DNA of 64,000 nucleotides from Candidatus Levyibacteriota bacterium (GCA_963722305.1 CAVRKE010000002.1:123878-187877); one strand, 5' to 3'. Positions 4,065 to 44,139 are shown, counted from the first letter of the stretch. Notes: generated by a model from the letters alone, not told the origin. Numbers and translations are program-made.

Positions 4065-4106
4065 TTCTTGAAGATCCTTCGAAGGAATATTATCCTTCAA
4101 GAGATA

Positions 4107-4144
4107 ATAAAAAACCCCTCGCCGAATTTGGAAGGGGTTTTTTA
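4107..4144. terminator. Bidirectional rho-independent terminator between convergent genes
   Basis: A-run, then the CCCCT...AGGGG hairpin, then a T-run (aaaaaaCCCCTcgccgaatttggaAGGGGtttttt). Confidence 0.55.
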
Positions 4145-26884: not shown

Positions 26885-29800
26885 CTAAGACTTTGTGAAC
26901 TCTGCCCAGGATTTTATCGCAATTTTGTTTAAATCTTTTTCGCCAATCGCTTTGACGAATAGTTCTGCTTTTTGTAAGTTTGTAAATAGCGGAATATTCT
27001 GGTCAACGGCGAAACGTCTGATGTAATAATCATCATCAATGTCTTTTTTTAAATTTGTGTCGGTGATATTAATTGCCATATCGACTTTGGCTTTCTGAAA
27101 GTACTCGAGAATGTTTGGCGATTTTTCCTCATGAATTTTATAAAGCATTTTTGTTTTTACACCATTTTTATTTAGATACGCCGCAGTTTTTTCCGTAGCG
27201 TATAATGGTAAACTGAGGCGTAGCAGAAGTCTTGCGCTCTCCAAAAACTTAATTTTATTTTCATCACCGGAAAGACTAATAAAAATTCCTACTTTAGGAA
27301 TTCTTCCACCGACGCTTAGCTCCGCCAGTAAAAAGGCTTCCTCAACATCATTGCCAAAACAAGCCACTTCTCCGGTTGAGGCCATTTCAACGTCCAACAC
27401 CGGATCTGCTCCGAAAAGCCTGGCAAAAGAAAATTGGGCAACTTTGGAGGCGACAAAATCATAATCCAAAGCGTTAATATTGACTGTTTTTATTTGCTTT
27501 CCGAACATTACATCTGCTGCCATCTTAATTAAATTAACGCCTGTCACTTTGGAAATAAACGGAAAAGTACGGGAAGAACGAAGGTTAACTTCAATCACCG
27601 AAACGTCGTTATCCCGCGCGAGGCATTGCATATTAAACGGTCCGGTAATGCTCAAGGCTTTTGCCAGAGCTACTGTAATCTTTTTTAATCTGCGCTGAGT
27701 CTCGCCATATAATTTTTGCGGCGGGAAAACAATTGAGGCATCACCCGAATGGACACCGGCGTTTTCGACGTGTTCGGAAATGACAAACACTTTTACTTCA
27801 CCTTTTTCCGCTACCGCATCGACTTCTATTTCTTTAGCATTTTCGATAAATTTAGAAACAGTTACGGGATGCTCTTTGGAAATCGCTGTTGACATAAGAT
27901 AATTTTTTAAGTCGTCCTTTGTCCGGCAGACCTTCATATTACTACCCGACAAAACATAGGAAGGACGGATCAGCACCGGAAAGCCGACGCTTTGGCTAAA
28001 ACTAAGCACTTCAGAAAGTTTAGTGAATTTACTCCAGGCCGGCTGAGAAATTTCTAACGAATCCAAAAGTGCCGAAAATTTTCGTCTGTCTTCCGCTTTA
28101 TCAATATCGTTTGGATGGGTTCCGAGAATTTTACAGCCGTAATCTTTTAAAGCTTTCGCCCGGTTGTTCGGCGTTTGTCCTCCAACCGAAACAATTATTC
28201 CGTACGGATTTTCAAATTCATAAATATCGGTTATCCTTTCAAAGGTCAACTCTTCAAAATACAGCCTGTCGGAAATATCATAATCGGTGGAAACAGTTTC
28301 GGGATTACAGTTAACAACAATCGTTTTTTTCTTATTTTCCTTGACCGCAATTACCGTATTCACACAAGTCCAATCAAATTCTACCGATGAACCGATGCGG
28401 TATGGCCCGGAACCAAGTACAATCACACCGCCATCGGCAAATTTCTCAACGTCATGATGGCTTCCTCCGTAAGTCAAATAAAGGTAATTTGTTTTGGCGG
28501 GAAATTCACCTGCCAAAGTATCTATCGAAAAAACAGACGGCAAAATACCATATTGCTTCCTTAAGGTTCTGATCTCAAGTCCTCTTTTTCCAACTAATGA
28601 ACCAATCCTTTTGTCCGAAAAGCCAAGAATCTTTAATTTGAGAAGATTTTCTTTTTCAAGTTTTTTTGTTGCCAACAATTGCTTTTCCTGCGCCACAATA
28701 TTTTTAATTCTGTATAAAAACCAGGGGTCAATTCCGGTCAAGGAATAAATTTCTTCAACTGGAACATTTTCATAGAAAGCCTTGGCGATGGCAAACATTC
28801 TGTTTGGCGTGGGCCGCCGGAGTAAGGCTTTCGTGTCTTTTTTGCTATTCTCGTTTTTAAAAATATTTTCATCGACCGCTCCCTCGAAATCCAAATCCAA
28901 CATGCGAATGGCTTTTTGGTAGGCTTCTTCAAAACATCTGCCAATCCCCATCACTTCGCCTACTGACTTCATGCTGCTGCCGATTTCCTCTTGGGCACCC
29001 TTAAACTTGTTGATATCCCATCTGGGAATTTTTACGGTCACATAATCAAGCGCCGGCTCAAAACAGGATTGAGTGACTTTTGTAACTTTATTCTCCAGCT
29101 CTGTCAAGCTTTTGCCAAGCGCCAGTTTCGCCGCGACATACGCCAGCGGATAACCGGTGGCCTTGCTGGCTAGCGCCGAACTCCGGGAAAGACGGGGGTT
29201 AAGCTCAATGACATAATATTCCAAAGCGCCGGTTGAAGGATTCGTCTGCCCGCCATCAGCTTTCGCTTCAGGCGATTGCGGGCGGGGGTTTAAAGCAAAC
29301 TGGACATTGCATTCCCCAACCACATTTAAACTGCGGACAATTTGGATTGAGACTGAACGGAGTGTGTGGTATTCGTAATCTGTCAGAGTTTGGCTTGGAG
29401 CAATGACAATTGACTCCCCGGTGTGAATTCCCAAAGGGTCCATATTTTCCATGTTACAAACCGTAATGCAGTTATCGAATTTATCCCTGACCACTTCGTA
29501 TTCAACTTCTTTATAGTGATGTAAATATTTTTCAATCAGGATTTGCGAAACAAAAGAAAAGGCAACGTTGGCAATATTTTTTAATTCTTCCTCATTTTGC
29601 GCAATTCCCGACCCCTGCCCGCCCAGGGCAAATCCCGACCTCACCATTACCGGAAAACCTAACTCTCTGGCGATTTTGAGCGCTTCTTTCTGGTTTTCCG
29701 CGGCCCGGCTTTTGGGAGTTGAAATTCCTTGTACTCTTAAATGGTCGGCGAATTTTTGCCTGTCCTCCGAAAGAATTATGGTGCTTATCGGACTGCCTAA

Positions 29801-30136
29801 TATTTCAACCTTGTATTTTTTGAGTATTCCTTTTTTATAAAGCGACAGTCCGCAGTTTAAGGCGGTTTGTCCGCCAAAAGAAAGGAAAATTCCGTCTGGC
29901 CTTTCTTTGGCAATAATTTTTTCGACAAAAAAATCGTTGATGGGCAAAAAATAGACCGTATCGGCAAGATAATCTGAAGTTTGGATGGTGGCAATATTCG
30001 GATTGACCAAAACCGTTTTTATCCCTTCTTCTTTTAAGGCTTTTATCGCCTGAGAACCGGAATAGTCAAATTCTCCGGCTTCGCCGATTTTTAAAGCTCC
30101 CGAGCCTAAAACTAGCACTTTTTTTATATTCTTCAT
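26885..30136 (-). CDS. carB: Carbamoyl-phosphate synthase large subunit
   Basis: Two ATP-grasp halves and a C-terminal MGS-like domain. Start refined to MKNIKKVLVLGSG (30136). Confidence 0.95.
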   Translation of the reverse strand: MKNIKKVLVLGSGALKIGEAGEFDYSGSQAIKALKEEGIKTVLVNPNIATIQTSDYLADTVYFLPINDFFVEKIIAKERPDGIFLSFGGQTALNCGLSLYKKGILKKYKVEILGSPISTIILSEDRQKFADHLRVQGISTPKSRAAENQKEALKIARELGFPVMVRSGFALGGQGSGIAQNEEELKNIANVAFSFVSQILIEKYLHHYKEVEYEVVRDKFDNCITVCNMENMDPLGIHTGESIVIAPSQTLTDYEYHTLRSVSIQIVRSLNVVGECNVQFALNPRPQSPEAKADGGQTNPSTGALEYYVIELNPRLSRSSALASKATGYPLAYVAAKLALGKSLTELENKVTKVTQSCFEPALDYVTVKIPRWDINKFKGAQEEIGSSMKSVGEVMGIGRCFEEAYQKAIRMLDLDFEGAVDENIFKNENSKKDTKALLRRPTPNRMFAIAKAFYENVPVEEIYSLTGIDPWFLYRIKNIVAQEKQLLATKKLEKENLLKLKILGFSDKRIGSLVGKRGLEIRTLRKQYGILPSVFSIDTLAGEFPAKTNYLYLTYGGSHHDVEKFADGGVIVLGSGPYRIGSSVEFDWTCVNTVIAVKENKKKTIVVNCNPETVSTDYDISDRLYFEELTFERITDIYEFENPYGIIVSVGGQTPNNRAKALKDYGCKILGTHPNDIDKAEDRRKFSALLDSLEISQPAWSKFTKLSEVLSFSQSVGFPVLIRPSYVLSGSNMKVCRTKDDLKNYLMSTAISKEHPVTVSKFIENAKEIEVDAVAEKGEVKVFVISEHVENAGVHSGDASIVFPPQKLYGETQRRLKKITVALAKALSITGPFNMQCLARDNDVSVIEVNLRSSRTFPFISKVTGVNLIKMAADVMFGKQIKTVNINALDYDFVASKVAQFSFARLFGADPVLDVEMASTGEVACFGNDVEEAFLLAELSVGGRIPKVGIFISLSGDENKIKFLESARLLLRLSLPLYATEKTAAYLNKNGVKTKMLYKIHEEKSPNILEYFQKAKVDMAINITDTNLKKDIDDDYYIRRFAVDQNIPLFTNLQKAELFVKAIGEKDLNKIAIKSWAEFTKS
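29246..29288. repeat. GC-rich palindromic in-frame insertion element (copy 1) inside carB
   Basis: ctgcccgccatcagctttcgcttcaggcgattgcgggcggggg. Encodes RPQSPEAKADGGQT, replacing the canonical KNGRL. About 85% identical to the copy in kbl. Confidence 0.7.
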
Positions 30137-30137
30137 A

Positions 30138-30785
30138 TTATTTATTTTTATACCAAACTGCCCATGCCCATTTACCAAACATCATGTTTATTTTTGAATT
30201 ACTAGCATAAGGGCCAAAAATTTCTTCAAGTTCTTCTTTTGTATAATAATTTTTAATAACTTTGTATTTTTTATCGCCAACCTTTCTTATTCTGAATGTG
30301 TCCTTACCTTTCTTAATCAACTCCGCATTTTCCTCATGTAAAACATTGTCGCAAAGAAAAACCATCGAATCACTTTTCAAAACTCGATGAAATTCTTTTA
30401 GAAATTTTGTGATGTCCTTTCTTAGAATGTGAGAAAACCAAAAACAGGCAACTCCACCAGTAAAAGAATTATTTTTATAGTAAAGTTTATTTGCGTCTGC
30501 GATTTCAAAATCAACAGGACACAAATACTTTTTCGATTTAGCTAACTCAAGAACTTCCTGAACTGCATCTGTTGCCTTAATTGTTTTAGCGACTTTTGAA
30601 ATAATACCTGTCCAATAACCAGTACCGCAGGCTATCTCAATTATTTCCTTTTGTTTGAATAACTTTATTAAAATTGTATCTATCTTTTTGGCATCTTCGA
30701 TTCTGCCTGGTTCGTTTCGGAAATACATACTTTTGTCGTATTCCGGCGCCCTATCTTTATAATAAGTCTTAATATTCGTTATCAT
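30138..30785 (-). CDS. Class I SAM-dependent methyltransferase inserted between carA and carB
   Basis: SAM motif IEIACGTGYWT. 4-nt overlap with carA and 1-nt spacing to carB. Confidence 0.7.
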   Translation of the reverse strand: MITNIKTYYKDRAPEYDKSMYFRNEPGRIEDAKKIDTILIKLFKQKEIIEIACGTGYWTGIISKVAKTIKATDAVQEVLELAKSKKYLCPVDFEIADANKLYYKNNSFTGGVACFWFSHILRKDITKFLKEFHRVLKSDSMVFLCDNVLHEENAELIKKGKDTFRIRKVGDKKYKVIKNYYTKEELEEIFGPYASNSKINMMFGKWAWAVWYKNK

Positions 30786-31822
30786 ATTTTTCCTAAGAAA
30801 TAATCAAATATCCATTCCGTGTCTTGTGGGCCGGGAGTGGCTTCGGGATGAAATTGGGCCGACATAAAAGGCAAATTGTTATGAATTATTCCTTCATTGG
30901 TCTTATCGTTGGCGTTTGTAAACCAGGGTTTAAATCCCGCGGGAATTTTAGAAACTGCAAACCCGTGATTTTGAGTAGTAATAAAACAGCGGCTTGAACC
31001 TTCCATAATGCATGGTTGGTTTTGACTACGGTGTCCGTATTTTAGCTTTTGAGTATCTCCACCCGCTGCCAGAGCCAAGATTTGATTCCCTAAACAAATT
31101 CCTAAAATTGGAATTTTTCTATCCAATGCGCCTTTGGCGGTCTGAATTGTTTTCGTTGCCATCTTCGGATCTCCGGGTCCGTTTGAAATTAAGATGGCAT
31201 CAAATTGCTTACCGTCTTTCACGACAAATGGATTGTAATCCCAGGGAACGGTTATGAGGTTTACTCCTCTTTTTAGAAGCGCCCTTTGGATGTTATTTTT
31301 GGCTCCACAATCAATCAAAAGTATCGTTTTTGAACCCTCACTTTTGAGAAGAACCGGCTTTTTTAGCGAAACCTGGTCAACCAGATTATCAAGATTTGGG
31401 TCATAAAAGGCAATATCTTCTGCGAAAACTATTTTGCCAAGCATTGTTCCTTTTTCCCTTATCTTTTGCGTTAGAAACCTGGTATCTTTTATTTCCAAAA
31501 GAGGAATATTTTCGTCTTTGAACCACTGGGCTAGAGTTTTTTTGCTTTGGAAGTGTGAGGGAGTATCGTTATATGTACTGACAATCAAACCGGAAACCAT
31601 AATTTTATCCGATTCCCAGAACCTGCGGTCCGGCACTCCGTAATTGCCGATTAACGGGTAAGTAAGAACCAGTATCTGTCCTTTATACGAAGGGTCCGTT
31701 AAACTCTCCGGATAGCCCATCATTCCTGTCGCAAAAACCACTTCTCCGGCCGAAGCTTTTTGAGCACCAAAACTTACTCCCGAAATTTCTGTTTTGTCTT
31801 CTAAAATTAGTGTTCCGTTCAT
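30782..31822 (-). CDS. carA: Carbamoyl-phosphate synthase small subunit (glutamine amidotransferase)
   Basis: CarA N-domain and GATase with GICLGNQ. Confidence 0.9.
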   Translation of the reverse strand: MNGTLILEDKTEISGVSFGAQKASAGEVVFATGMMGYPESLTDPSYKGQILVLTYPLIGNYGVPDRRFWESDKIMVSGLIVSTYNDTPSHFQSKKTLAQWFKDENIPLLEIKDTRFLTQKIREKGTMLGKIVFAEDIAFYDPNLDNLVDQVSLKKPVLLKSEGSKTILLIDCGAKNNIQRALLKRGVNLITVPWDYNPFVVKDGKQFDAILISNGPGDPKMATKTIQTAKGALDRKIPILGICLGNQILALAAGGDTQKLKYGHRSQNQPCIMEGSSRCFITTQNHGFAVSKIPAGFKPWFTNANDKTNEGIIHNNLPFMSAQFHPEATPGPQDTEWIFDYFLGKI

Positions 31823-40241: not shown

Positions 40242-40895
40242 ATGATAAGCACGACTTCCGTGGTTGAAAACTTAGTCAAAGCCTCTCCTCTTTTGGAGGA
40301 CGGACTTGCCAGAGGAATCATCAATTATTCCGCCTTGGCTAAAGATTTACGTCCTCAAATTGAAGAAAAACTCTTAAAAAAGGTTGGGCGGAGCGCCATT
40401 GTTATGGCTCTTAAACGAACCAGTAGTAAATTGAAAACAAAAAGAAAAGTTACTCAACAAATAATCAACCTAAGTGGGATAACTGCGCGCTCCAATTTGG
40501 CAGAGCTTACTTATCTTAACTCCGATACAATTATCGAAAAACACAAGAAAGTATTTTTCACTTCCGAAAAAAGAAAAGATATTTTTTGTAATTTAACCCA
40601 AGGCGTTAGAGAGACAATGCTGATAGTCGGAGAAGAAATCCTTACACCGATGGAAAAGCTTTTTGCAGATGAGAGACTGGTTGCAAAAATCAAAAATTTA
40701 TCATCAATCACTATCTTGCTGACAAAAGAAACTGTCAACACACCGGGCGTATATTATTCTATTTTAAAACTGTTGGCATGGAACGAAATTAACATTATCG
40801 ATGTTATCTCCACTTATTCCGAATTAACAATTATTCTCTCCAACAACGATATCGACAGAGCCTTTTCTCTTTTGAAGAACTACAAAAACAATTAA
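40242..40895 (+). CDS. ACT-domain-like regulatory protein (hypothetical)
   Basis: Two beta-alpha-beta-beta-alpha-beta-like segments. Weak assignment. Confidence 0.35.
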   Translation: MISTTSVVENLVKASPLLEDGLARGIINYSALAKDLRPQIEEKLLKKVGRSAIVMALKRTSSKLKTKRKVTQQIINLSGITARSNLAELTYLNSDTIIEKHKKVFFTSEKRKDIFCNLTQGVRETMLIVGEEILTPMEKLFADERLVAKIKNLSSITILLTKETVNTPGVYYSILKLLAWNEINIIDVISTYSELTIILSNNDIDRAFSLLKNYKNN

Positions 40896-41878
40896 GCGGA
40901 AATTTCGAATTTAGATACTAATTCGTGTGCTTTTTCTTTATTCTTTTCGGTGACGTCTATTCTGACCATTCCGACATTCGGCTGGCCATAGAAAGTCGAA
41001 AACCCTAGAGGTGAAACCAGTATTACCGGTAAAACCGCCAAATCTTCTTCCCCTTCCACTAAGATTACTTTTTTATCTTTAGTTTTAAAAGCCTCGGTTA
41101 CTGCCCGAAACAACTCCGGAGTAATTGTACCGTGGGGATTTTTTACTTTTTGGAAAATATGGTTATTAAAGCCCAATTCCGAAAGGTCATGGAATTTAAT
41201 TTGTCGCTGCACCAAAAAATCAACAATTGACAGAAACTGACCGACACCTTTTTGATTGAACATTTGTGTATTAATGTCACCGATGGTTATAGTTTTTGCA
41301 GCCTCAATATTTTCCGGTACCTCAAACAAAACTTCTCCCCAAGGTTTTTGCAACTCTGGGCGCAAATTTTCCGGGAGAATCAAAGTTTTATTCTGCCAAT
41401 TGGGATTTAGATAAAGCCTACCGTCTCTATTTATTTCTCCGTTTCTAATTCTAGTCGCAGAAATAATCTTTCCGTCCTCCGCAAGCCCTAGAGTAACTTT
41501 GACTATTTCAAGTTCCGGTAATTTTTTCTCTTGTCTTTTTTTGTTGATATCAACTGCCATTTGCTCCGTCTGTGAAGTGATGGCAATGGCTTGAGGATTA
41601 AATTCATTAGCCAAAAGCGGACCAAAATAATCATCGATTGAGACTATCTGAATTCTCTCCGAGGCATTAATTGAGTTTAAAAACTGTTCGAGTACTTTTT
41701 TTCTGCTTTCAAACGATTCAATTTCTTTTCCCTCTTTAAACGCCTGAACATATGCATCACTGGTTAAACCTAAAACAATTTTTTCGGAAACCCTTAAAAT
41801 ATTTTGTATGAAACTTTTATGCCCCGCATGCAGTAAATCGAAAGTTCCGCCGCAAGCAATCAGATTATATTTGGTCAT
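40892..41878 (-). CDS. Bifunctional archaeal-type phosphopantetheine adenylyltransferase / GTP-dependent dephospho-CoA kinase (DUF359) fusion
   Basis: N-terminal cytidylyltransferase motif GGTFDLLHAGH. C-terminal DUF359-like ITIGD...ILVEGEEDLAVLP. Confidence 0.6.
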   Translation of the reverse strand: MTKYNLIACGGTFDLLHAGHKSFIQNILRVSEKIVLGLTSDAYVQAFKEGKEIESFESRKKVLEQFLNSINASERIQIVSIDDYFGPLLANEFNPQAIAITSQTEQMAVDINKKRQEKKLPELEIVKVTLGLAEDGKIISATRIRNGEINRDGRLYLNPNWQNKTLILPENLRPELQKPWGEVLFEVPENIEAAKTITIGDINTQMFNQKGVGQFLSIVDFLVQRQIKFHDLSELGFNNHIFQKVKNPHGTITPELFRAVTEAFKTKDKKVILVEGEEDLAVLPVILVSPLGFSTFYGQPNVGMVRIDVTEKNKEKAHELVSKFEISA

Positions 41879-41887
41879 AAGAGGATT

Positions 41888-43123
41888 TTATAGCACTTTT
41901 AGTTCTTTTGCCACTTTTTTAAACGCAGCAATACCAATGTCTAAATCTTTTTTGGAATGGGCAGCCGACGGAATAACTCTAATTCTTGCTTTCCCCTTGG
42001 CAACCATTGGAAAAACTATCGGTGTTGCAAATACATTTTCTTCGAAAAGTTTAGCACTGAACTGCTTGGCTAATTCCTCATCTCCAAGCATTACGGGAGT
42101 AATCGGACTTTCCGGATGTCCCGTATCAAAACCCAAGTCTCCGAATCTTTCCCTAAGATACTTTGTATTATCCCACAGTTTTTTAACCAGGGCATCGGAT
42201 TCGAGTAAAATATTGATTGCCTCCAAAGCTGCGGCCGTATCCGGAATTGTTAAGGCGATTGAAAAGAGTCTCTGTCTTGCCTTTAGATTATAATAATCAA
42301 TTAAACTTTTGCGGCCGGCAATAAATCCACCGATGACGGAAAATGCTTTAGAAAGACTACCAATTTCTATATCAATTTTTCCCACCAAATCAAAATGGTC
42401 AACCACGCCTCTTCCACCTCGTCCCATAACTCCCTCACCATGAGCATCATCTACCATCGTTAGTGCGCCGTATTGTTTAGCAAACTTGACAATTTCAGGA
42501 AGCGGGGCCAGATCGCCGTCCATCGAAAAAACACCGTCAGTGACGATAAGAACCGTTGGCATTTGTCCGTCTAATTTTGCCTGCCCGCCATCGCTACGCT
42601 CAGGCGCTTGCGGGCGGGGCGTTTTTGCTAATTGGGAAGCTTCCTTTAATTTTTCTTCCAAATCATTTGCGTCTCCATGTTTATAAATGAATTTGTTTTT
42701 TACACCGGAAAGTCTCACCGCGTCGATAATCGACGCGTGATTTAGTTCATCTGAAATAACAATGTCTTCTTTGCCAATAATTGTTTGTATTGCCGCCGCA
42801 TTTGCCATATAGGCGCTGGAAAAAACAACTGAGGCTTCGGTGCCCTTAAATTTGGCGATTGCTTCTTCAAGCTGAAGGTGAAGGGTGTGGGTTCCGGCCA
42901 GAGTCCGGTAACCCGTTCCTAAACCGTATTCGGCAATTGCCTCTTGTGCGGCTTTTTTGAGTCTTTCGTCTTCAGCCAATCCCAGATAATGACTGGAACA
43001 AAAATTTAATTTTTTAACGCCACCGATTGTTAAATACGCTCCCTGTCCGGATTCAATCACTCTGGGACTGGCACCTGATTTTATCGCTTCTTCCAGTTGT
43101 TTGTAAAAATCGGCTACATTCAT
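41888..43123 (-). CDS. kbl: 2-amino-3-ketobutyrate CoA ligase (glycine C-acetyltransferase)
   Basis: PLP class-II aminotransferase motifs (SLSKAFSVIGG). Adjacent to tdh. Confidence 0.8.
   Translation of the reverse strand: MNVADFYKQLEEAIKSGASPRVIESGQGAYLTIGGVKKLNFCSSHYLGLAEDERLKKAAQEAIAEYGLGTGYRTLAGTHTLHLQLEEAIAKFKGTEASVVFSSAYMANAAAIQTIIGKEDIVISDELNHASIIDAVRLSGVKNKFIYKHGDANDLEEKLKEASQLAKTPRPQAPERSDGGQAKLDGQMPTVLIVTDGVFSMDGDLAPLPEIVKFAKQYGALTMVDDAHGEGVMGRGGRGVVDHFDLVGKIDIEIGSLSKAFSVIGGFIAGRKSLIDYYNLKARQRLFSIALTIPDTAAALEAINILLESDALVKKLWDNTKYLRERFGDLGFDTGHPESPITPVMLGDEELAKQFSAKLFEENVFATPIVFPMVAKGKARIRVIPSAAHSKKDLDIGIAAFKKVAKELKVL
42582..42622. repeat. GC-rich palindromic in-frame insertion element (copy 2) inside kbl
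   Basis: ctgcccgccatcgctacgctcaggcgcttgcgggcggggcg. Encodes KTPRPQAPERSDGGQAKLDG, which is absent from canonical Kbl. Confidence 0.7.
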
Positions 43124-44139
43124 GGTTGTAAAATAATTTTACCACACTTACCGGATTTCATCACTTTCATGGCTTTTTCAAATTCATAAAGACGAAATTC
43201 ATGAGTCACAATTTTACTTAAGTCTACTTTGCCTTTTGTCAAAAGCTCCGAAACTTTTTCCCAAGTTTTCCAAATATTTCTACCAAATATTCCTTTTATC
43301 GTCAATTCTTTATCGATGATATACTTGCCAAAATCAACAGCAATTTCGCTATCTGGAATTCCAAAAGCAATCACCTTTCCAGCCATAGCTACTATTTCAA
43401 AAGCGGCTGTAATTGCCTCCCTGTTTCCCGACATTTCAAAGATTACATCAACAGCGCCATAATATTTTTTGGGTAACTTCCGATATACTTCATCTACTCC
43501 CATTTCTTTTGCCAAATTTCTTCTGTACTCCCCTCTATTAATTCCAATTACTTTAGCCGCTCCAAAGGCTTTTGCGGCAACTATCGCACACAGTCCTGTC
43601 GGACCTAGTCCTATTATCGCTACCGTCTTACCCTTTACTTGGGCTTCGCTGACAGCATGCACGGCATTTCCGAATGGCTCCTGGGAACTCATTTCCACCA
43701 GGGGAATGCTTGAATTATTCTTCCAAGTTGTTTTTAGGGGAATGGTGGCATACTCGGCAAAACTGCCATTTCTACTTATCCCGAAGAGCTGCATCTTCTC
43801 ACAGATATGCCGGTTACCGATTTTACACTGGCGGCATTTTCCGCAAAAAATATGTGTTTCCGACGAAACTAAATCTCCAACTTTAATTTTTTGTGGGTTA
43901 TCATCTCCGTTAATTTCCAATACCTCCCCAACTATTTCATGACCGATAATCACCGGCGGCTTAATCTGTTCCTGGGCCCAAAGATTCCAATCGTAAATTC
44001 CAACGTCTGTTCCACAAATAGAGGCAAGCTTAACTTTAACCAGCACTTCTCCCTTTTTCGGCTTGGGGATGGGAACGTTTTTTATCAATATTCCCGGGGC
44101 TTTCTTTTCTTTGACTACCGCAAGCATTGTATTTTCCAT
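43120..44139 (-). CDS. tdh: L-threonine 3-dehydrogenase (Zn-dependent)
   Basis: Zn-ADH motifs (CGTDVGIYDWNLWA, GHEIVGEV). Confidence 0.85.
   Translation of the reverse strand: MENTMLAVVKEKKAPGILIKNVPIPKPKKGEVLVKVKLASICGTDVGIYDWNLWAQEQIKPPVIIGHEIVGEVLEINGDDNPQKIKVGDLVSSETHIFCGKCRQCKIGNRHICEKMQLFGISRNGSFAEYATIPLKTTWKNNSSIPLVEMSSQEPFGNAVHAVSEAQVKGKTVAIIGLGPTGLCAIVAAKAFGAAKVIGINRGEYRRNLAKEMGVDEVYRKLPKKYYGAVDVIFEMSGNREAITAAFEIVAMAGKVIAFGIPDSEIAVDFGKYIIDKELTIKGIFGRNIWKTWEKVSELLTKGKVDLSKIVTHEFRLYEFEKAMKVMKSGKCGKIILQP

Follow-up and report, generated by a model that had tools for sequence, protein, structure and literature searches.

How did two unrelated genes of one bacterium come to carry nearly the same short GC-rich sequence within their reading frames? 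The question is raised by a stretch of 64,000 nucleotides from Candidatus Levyibacteriota bacterium (GCA_963722305.1 CAVRKE010000002.1:123878-187877), here called the window. One copy of the sequence lies in kbl, which encodes a 2-amino-3-ketobutyrate CoA ligase, and another lies in carB, which encodes the large subunit of carbamoyl-phosphate synthase. We found that both copies belong to a previously undescribed family of tiny, nearly invariant insertion elements of many ultra-small bacteria of the Candidate Phyla Radiation (CPR, or Patescibacteria), which are small-genome, host-dependent organisms. We think it probable, with some reserve, that the element is a selfish, site-preferring hairpin that is translated through as a surface loop of the host protein and is specific to Patescibacteria.

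Clean in-frame insertions in kbl and carB

The host genes and the two copies are located in the window as follows.

41888..43123, - strand: kbl-type 2-amino-3-ketobutyrate CoA ligase gene, 411 aa (Pfam Aminotran_1_2; homologues named glycine C-acetyltransferase)
42580..42618, - strand: 39-nt GC-rich palindromic insertion element in kbl, short-loop variant (exact match; covariance-model score 68.1 bits)
42580..42588, + strand: 5′ stem arm CCTGCCCGC, pairs with 42610-42618
42610..42618, + strand: 3′ stem arm GCGGGCGGG, partner of 42580-42588
26885..30178, - strand: carB, carbamoyl-phosphate synthase large subunit gene, 1097 aa (Pfam)
29245..29286, - strand: 42-nt long-loop variant in carB (covariance-model score 50.1 bits), encoding RPQSPEAKADGGQ(T)

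The closest Kbl homologues found by BLASTP are 398 aa long and 85–87% identical to the window protein, or 87–90% identical when the insert columns are removed. They read ...AKTP/KSDGQ... (a slash marks the insertion point here and below), and the window protein reads ...AKTP-RPQAPERSDGGQA-KLDGQ.... The KTP and K(L/S)DGQ flanks are therefore native, and the insert is exactly 13 aa, or 39 nt. The original prediction of 18–20 added residues had included native flank residues. At the DNA level, filled and empty kbl alleles are exactly 39 nt apart and the flank is not duplicated. Placed most simply, the insert follows the first base of the Pro codon, so that ACN C/CN AAA becomes ACN C-CCCGCCCGC...GCGGGCAGG-CN AAA. 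On the gene strand the element is CCCGCCCGCAAGCGCCTGAGCGTAGCGATGGCGGGCAGG and contributes RPQAPERSDGGQ(A).

The carB insert adds 14 aa (42 nt) between ALNP and NP..., in the same phase as in kbl, after codon position 1. Empty carB homologues read ALNP/NPKNG, and filled ones are 42 nt longer without duplication. Thus, no target-site duplication was found when filled and empty alleles of kbl and carB were compared. The two copies also have the same orientation and the same frame relative to their host genes.

We then placed the inserts on the host proteins by alignment. The kbl site falls in a linker between a helix ending ...LKEA and the strand LIVTDGVFSMDG, where residues 162–191 of the Kbl query face 7 residues of a solved KBL/AONS chain. 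The carB site falls at a beta-turn of the first ATP-grasp domain; human CPS1 is contiguous (...FALHPT/SMEYCIIEVN) where the window CarB has 18 extra residues. For the window Kbl, AlphaFold gave a poor model (mean predicted local distance difference test score 62.6). It draws the insert as coil, and nothing more was taken from it. By the alignments, both inserts sit in linkers or turns of the host proteins, which are short connectors in the solved homologues.

Three carB homologues (P0145, P0147 and P0216) carry unrelated inserts of about 18–30 extra residues in the loop equivalent to window 29240–29290. Because unrelated long inserts occur there in other CPR lineages, this beta-turn appears to be generally permissive.

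Anatomy of the two copies

The 41-mer that represents the kbl copy has a single exact match in the window, at 42581–42621 on the + strand, and shuffled sequences gave no match. The position first given for it, 42582–42622, was one base too high. In the family alignment the kbl and carB copies share 35 identical positions over 42 columns, with 4 mismatches and 3 gapped positions. This is 83% identity with gaps counted and 90% without gaps, close to the earlier estimate of about 85%. The net length difference of 3 nt lies in the loop.

The kbl element can form a 9-bp GC stem with a 21-nt loop, in which one position is T.G when read on the + strand and C.A when read on the gene strand. Besides this stem, a small inner helix may form. 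The corresponding loop region of the carB copy is 24 nt. When folded as single-stranded DNA, the commonest 39-mer of the family gave -14.3 kcal/mol (z = -3.85), and 0 of 200 shuffles were as stable.

Both copies are among the most GC-rich 40-mers of the window, which has about 40% GC. The pattern CCCGCC-N8-38-GGCGGG occurs at two places in the 64 kb, the kbl and carB copies only, compared with 0.02 expected from shuffles. A covariance model built from the family found no third copy in the window. Rfam has no family for the element, and no RNA gene, not even a tRNA, reached the gathering threshold in the window. A simple scan called neither window copy as a terminator; T-runs 3′ of the hairpin are found in kbl orthologues only. 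We also considered a tRNA-derived origin, on account of CCTGCCC-G-CCA at the start of the + strand and a D-arm-like GCTCAGG in the loop. This was dropped as unsupported numerology.

The element in other genomes and genes

We scanned a collection of 185,579 species, with one genome per species, with the element pattern. Three CPR genomes matched, all metagenome-assembled genomes of Patescibacteria: one unclassified, one from Uhrbacteria and one from Jorgensenbacteria. One further match, in a GC-rich alphaproteobacterium, was due to chance. A scan of metagenome contigs gave 26 loci, of which 22, with low to medium GC, are true members and 4, GC-rich, are chance matches. The covariance model added a second copy in locus L022 and a decayed kbl copy in locus L033.

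After duplicates and orthologues were merged, the family comprised 11 coding and 7 intergenic sites, as listed below.

Coding sites 1–6: kbl; carB; S-adenosylmethionine (SAM) methyltransferase; large protein in L003; unknown protein in L004; gyrB
Coding sites 7–11: Pro_CA_2 protein; trxB; POR_N oxidoreductase subunit; PMT_2 glycosyltransferase; HIT-like protein
Intergenic sites: L005; L016/L025; L019; L020; two in L022; L026/L028

About 16 of these sites lie beyond the two of the window, in at least nine unrelated host genes besides kbl and carB; the number of host protein families is a lower bound, as it was obtained from DNA patterns. The original prediction proposed independent insertions of one repeat family into unrelated hosts, and this is what was found. 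It also named the outcome that would have spoken against it, namely similarity confined to the two window sites and explained by gene conversion between them. The scans of public genomes and metagenomes gave the opposite result, and the roughly 16 further sites exclude such conversion as the explanation.

The identical 39-mer CCTGCCCGCCATCGCTACGCTCAGGCGTTTGCGGGCGGG is present at seven loci in five host genes: kbl (in three genomes), gyrB, trxB, POR_N and PMT_2. Elements have a GC content of 0.67–0.82 in loci of 34–57% GC, and end in CC(T/C)GCCC...GGGC(G/A)GG. Uhrbacteria are part of the Parcubacteria group and Levybacteria part of the Microgenomates group, and the closest named relatives of the window are Levybacteria or Microgenomates. 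With members in Uhrbacteria and in the window, the family spans at least the Parcubacteria and Microgenomates groups.

The element pattern was not found in viral contigs, and phage and plasmid collections gave no match or matches at chance level only (E 0.04–0.5). A profile of the peptide in tandem triplicate gave three irrelevant matches with E > 1. We found no description of such elements in CPR bacteria in the searchable literature, and this one is also missing from a survey of the insertion sequences of CPR rRNA genes.

Two loci showed further features. At L023 667–741, upstream of a 372-aa open reading frame (ORF), there is a composite GC-rich palindrome of larger size that has the same CCCGCCCGCC / GGCGGGCAGG stems and may be a longer relative of the family. 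At L003 / L013 1775–1816, within a large protein of surface type, the long-loop variant directly follows a C-terminal motif like that of inteins/Hint domains (…VWDIEVEGTHNFVAGHLM); Pfam matches Intein_splicing there with E = 1.4e-7, but the score is below the curated cut-off.

Orientation, frame and length of the coding copies

At all 11 coding sites the host gene reads the CCCGCCCGCAA... strand (two-sided binomial, about 0.001). Nine of them use phase 1, which gives RPQ(A/T/S)PE..DGGQ, and two use phase 0, which gives ARKRLSxAMAG. The third sense phase contains stop codons and is used by none. The peptide RPQ...PE...DGGQ, noticed earlier as common to the two window copies, is thus encoded at most of the coding sites. 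As for the proposed check whether orientation and frame are always the same, the hallmark of Rickettsia palindromic elements (RPEs), orientation was the same at every coding site and frame at nine of the 11. The PMT_2 copy lies at the extreme N-terminus; it could instead belong to the 5′ leader or provide the start codon.

All 11 coding sites have elements of 39 or 42 nt. Intergenic copies range from 39 to 41 nt, and 4 of the 7 intergenic sites have 40–41 nt (Fisher p about 0.011). Intergenic copies also occur in either orientation relative to neighbouring genes, so selection on the product accounts for the bias at coding sites better than replication-linked insertion does. In the favoured frame the peptide is very hydrophilic and rich in Pro and Gly, with a grand average of hydropathy of -2.38 compared with -0.94 to +0.46 in the other frames.

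A diverged 36-nt GC-rich hairpin, GCCCGCCCGCCTCGCAAGCGAGAGCATTGCGGGCTGGC, was seen at L012 826–861, where it adds 12 aa (AMLSLARRAGQP) to the CTP_transf_like/DUF359 gene adjoining kbl. It is absent from the window orthologue (40892–41878). Its orientation is opposite to that of the main family, so the uniform orientation does not extend to this relative.

Gain, loss and conservation

Among 120 kbl homologues, six are filled: the window gene, P0020, P0022, P0044 and the pair P0024/P0028. The nearest neighbours of each filled lineage are empty. On a neighbour-joining tree of the 120 sequences, built without the insert columns, Fitch parsimony gave five changes from an empty root. For carB, three filled alleles were found, each closest to empty ones, and parsimony gave three changes. 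The scatter of filled alleles might have come from homologous recombination of entire kbl segments. This was rejected: the flanks right beside the element follow the host lineage, which excludes long conversion tracts.

The identity between copies at orthologous sites was set beside the values at 4-fold degenerate sites of the same genes.

kbl, undecayed copies: element 38–39/39; 4-fold sites 0.31–0.43
carB: element 39–40/42; 4-fold sites 0.37–0.42
Pro_CA_2: element 37–39/39; 4-fold sites 0.48 (n = 31), from the only full-length pair, of 57% aa identity

The other Pro_CA_2 pairs have too few 4-fold sites to count. Identity of the element is 92–100% in genes with saturated synonymous sites. The decayed kbl copies of P0024/P0028 (L033) are 35–36/39 identical to the others. 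The Pro_CA_2 orthologue copies share a private CAT variant. At L008 1077–1300, the element-bearing Pro_CA_2 gene ends soon after the insert, leaving an ORF of 71 aa compared with about 150 aa in orthologues; either a pseudogene or a frameshift from sequencing may account for this.

Two histories are favoured by different parts of these data. The kbl data favour repeated, site-specific insertion of a master whose sequence is constrained, with loss or decay afterwards. The Pro_CA_2 data favour old insertions that are under selection at the nucleotide level and have been precisely lost many times. A homing-like cycle would accommodate both.

Target sites

The empty sites were reconstituted, and their gene strand proved rich in A. 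In 21 of 23 copies a pyrimidine directly follows the element; C is most frequent at +1 and A at +2. The kbl and gyrB sites (CTAAARCYC/CAAAAARTGA) match at 13–16 of 20 positions; among phase-matched random pairs, 16/20 has P of about 1e-5 and 13/20 has P of about 9e-4. The PMT_2 site is also similar (13/20). On the + strand of the element, TTTG, TTG or ATG stands just before it in about half of the sites, and the others differ. These similarities are suggestive of sequence-directed insertion and do not support it decisively.

The kbl homologue P0114 carries a different GC-rich element, GTCATCCTGAG-TGACCTGCCTGCCGGCGAGGCAGGAA-CGAAGGATC, in the same surface loop (L037 782–825). Together, this second motif type and the L012 relative mark the kbl loop as a hot spot for GC-rich hairpins of a broader class.

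Intergenic copies and small GIY-YIG genes

Four of the seven intergenic sites adjoin tRNA genes, in mixed orientation relative to them, and a fifth (L026/L028) lies inside a duplicated tRNA-Asn fragment. In the 219 kb examined, small GIY-YIG ORFs (Pfam PF01541) were found only in L005, L022 and L026/L028, all of which have intergenic copies. A GIY-YIG gene thus stands beside three of the seven intergenic copies. In L026/L028 the element stops 22 nt short of the ATG of the GIY-YIG ORF (about 25 nt for the hairpin proper). In L022 one copy is about 260 nt upstream of such an ORF, and a different motif, TCATCCTGAG...CGAAGGATC, is 26 nt upstream of it (4070–4119). The outer motif there is the same as in P0114. 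Motifs of this kind are widespread near small GIY-YIG genes.

Viral contigs gave no relative of the GIY-YIG ORFs, for which NCBIfam has no specific name either. A weak Rfam HgcC match in L022 was below threshold. At L028 1359–2134 (also L026 185–640), a tRNA-Asn gene lies between two small GIY-YIG ORFs. Duplicated tRNA ends border each ORF, GGTAGCTCAG on the 5′ side and CCCGAGGAGCT on the 3′ side, the arrangement expected if a cassette inserts into a tRNA gene and regenerates it. The displaced 5′ fragment of tRNA-Asn is itself interrupted by a copy of the hairpin element.

Neighbouring genes in the window

A tdh-like (threonine-dehydrogenase-like) gene at 43120–44139 adjoins kbl. Between carA (30782–31822) and carB, the window has a 215-aa SAM-dependent methyltransferase ORF at 30138–30785 on the - strand (Pfam Methyltransf_25/11). 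In three close relatives (L034–L036), carA and carB adjoin directly, with a 4-nt overlap and no gene in between. The ORF looks like a gene that entered the carAB operon in a lineage-specific manner.

Comparison with known systems

RPEs are palindromic repeats that occur in frame in unrelated housekeeping genes and also outside genes, with 44 copies in R. conorii (PMC10969869). Like them, the present element is a hairpin-forming palindrome found in frame in unrelated ORFs and apparently translated as an extra peptide compatible with protein function. RPEs are about 150 bp long and fall into some ten families, with dozens of copies per genome, in Rickettsia only. The present element is 39–42 nt long, GC-rich in AT-rich genomes, detected in one or two copies per genome, and hosted by Patescibacteria. 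It is also nearly identical across CPR lineages and recurs at the same site in separate lineages. Membership in the RPEs therefore fails, because size, host and copy number differ.

Mitochondrial GC clusters include the in-frame cluster of yeast var1 and the byps of Magnusiomyces, and in Neurospora mitochondria tRNA genes are flanked by palindromes rich in GC (PMC8811140). The var1 gene, a classic example of unidirectional inheritance, has forms that differ by in-frame GC-cluster insertions (PMC8811140). Such clusters resemble the element in being short GC-rich palindromes of AT-rich genomes that can sit in frame in a coding gene, although most are intergenic. Yeast GC clusters are organellar, have AG/TAG terminal repeats taken as target duplications, and diverge fast, especially in their loops. 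In contrast, the element is on a bacterial chromosome, has neither terminal repeats nor a duplication, and has an almost invariant loop.

Repetitive extragenic palindromic sequences (REPs) are extragenic, high-copy and species-specific, with a GTAG or CGTC tag at one end (PMC3733652). REPs, REPINs and the IS200/IS605 insertion sequences (ISs) share with the element imperfect palindromes of 20–40 nt and the absence of target duplication. They can excise seamlessly and insert beside a short specific sequence. The element differs in its CC...GG ends, in having GTAG only inside the loop of the short variant, and in lying within genes at 11 of 18 sites. No HUH transposase turned up, and no genome-wide search for one was made. 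Miniature inverted-repeat transposable elements (Correia, enterobacterial repetitive intergenic consensus and others) are likewise short non-autonomous repeats with possible in-frame fusions. Their terminal inverted repeats around a non-palindromic core, target-site duplication and cognate IS were not seen for the element. No IS elements were seen in the loci examined. The element thus behaves like RPEs and mitochondrial GC clusters and is a member of neither.

Discussion

If the element is selfish mobile DNA, it would be transcribed and translated as an extra surface loop of the host protein, and selection would purge copies of the wrong length, orientation or frame. Its near-invariant sequence would result from recognition by a trans-acting enzyme. 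A preference for about AAA.C.C/CAAA on the gene strand would cause conserved sites such as the kbl loop to be hit repeatedly, and copies would later be lost or decay, in a manner resembling a homing-like cycle of gain and loss. The enzyme may be a small GIY-YIG nuclease or a hairpin-acting HUH transposase of the IS200/IS605 or RAYT type. The HUH type would fit because duplication is absent and loss is precise.

Several observations weigh against this explanation. The copy number is low, with two copies in the 64-kb window and one pattern match each in contigs of 574 kb and 863 kb, counts that are lower bounds as diverged relatives exist. The search pattern fixed much of the sequence, so that invariance at those positions is partly ascertainment. 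No stem pair changed on both sides; covariation is absent because the copies differ so little and the pattern was so restrictive, and symmetry is the only support for the stem. For carB, one gain with several precise losses is about as parsimonious as three gains. Pro_CA_2 looks like a case of vertical inheritance with purifying selection at the nucleotide level, unlike a neutrally decaying selfish element. No transposase or mobilising gene has been shown to act on the element, and the window was not systematically searched for one. The association with GIY-YIG genes was noted post hoc, and it may reflect nothing more than that both favour the vicinity of tRNA genes.

A more specific version of the selfish element can be put forward tentatively, and we hold it to be possible but doubtful. 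It states that a homing-type, non-coding 39-nt hairpin spreads across Patescibacteria lineages as far apart as Parcubacteria and Microgenomates, is driven in trans by a hairpin transposase or by a small nuclease specific for structure or sequence (that of the GIY-YIG cassettes beside intergenic copies), re-invades the same conserved housekeeping codons many times and excises precisely. If true, mitochondrial GC clusters would have a bacterial counterpart, and no smaller mobile element that remodels proteins would be known.

The element might instead be a conserved nucleic-acid signal of benefit to the host, such as the binding site of a CPR protein or an RNA hairpin for processing, stability or pausing, kept by purifying selection and with only historical mobility. 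This is the main rival, which we regard as unlikely. In its favour, nucleotide identity is far over neutral expectation, loop and synonymous positions included, and the private Pro_CA_2 variant is apparently vertical across deeply diverged orthologues. Five of the seven intergenic sites are beside tRNA genes or a tRNA fragment, one copy lies directly 3′ of a stop codon, and low copy number is usual for specific binding sites. However, the closest relatives of every filled kbl or carB allele are without the element, the host genes are functionally unrelated, and the orientation to tRNA genes is mixed. The hairpin is not called as a terminator and has no Rfam match, decayed copies persist in intact genes, and repeated insertion of a ready-made 39-mer into coding loops is not normal for a binding site.

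The remaining explanations concern what the coding copies do and how real they are. An insert that is removed from the mRNA or skipped by the ribosome, like a Magnusiomyces byp or T4 gene 60, is suggested by the likeness of a GC-rich hairpin in AT-rich coding sequence to byps (PMC8811140). We consider it very improbable, because the coding copies are without exception a multiple of three in length, free of stops and in one orientation, which argues against splicing or ribosomal bypass. The stop-containing phase is unused and the 40- and 41-nt forms are intergenic; such constraints are expected only if the insert is read. It is harder still to credit that the peptide itself is the selected unit, as a short linear motif that arose by convergence or by exon-like shuffling. 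RPQxPE..DGGQ does recur in nine host proteins, but synonymous positions are equally conserved, the codons are GC-rich in genomes of 37–46% GC, two sites use the other frame and seven are intergenic, and no case of the peptide encoded by divergent codons was seen. Finally, the presence of just two copies in the window could be put down to local gene conversion or duplication between them, or to an assembly or sequencing artefact. We give this almost no credence, since the element is found in independent JGI, ENA, NCBI and Logan assemblies, in many host genes, with orthologous copies and mutated derivatives.

In-frame palindromic repeats that code for protein were held to be peculiar to Rickettsia and some organelles. 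They are now found in CPR bacteria, in an element about four times shorter. The near-invariance of its sequence across lineages with genes saturated by substitutions, and its recurrence at identical codons of separate lineages, point to specific insertion and excision machinery or to a binding partner in organisms so far beyond genetic manipulation. The 39-mer offers a marker for insertion events and explains odd loops of 13–14 residues in CPR proteins, and the sites in Kbl, CarB, GyrB and TrxB are natural permissive sites.

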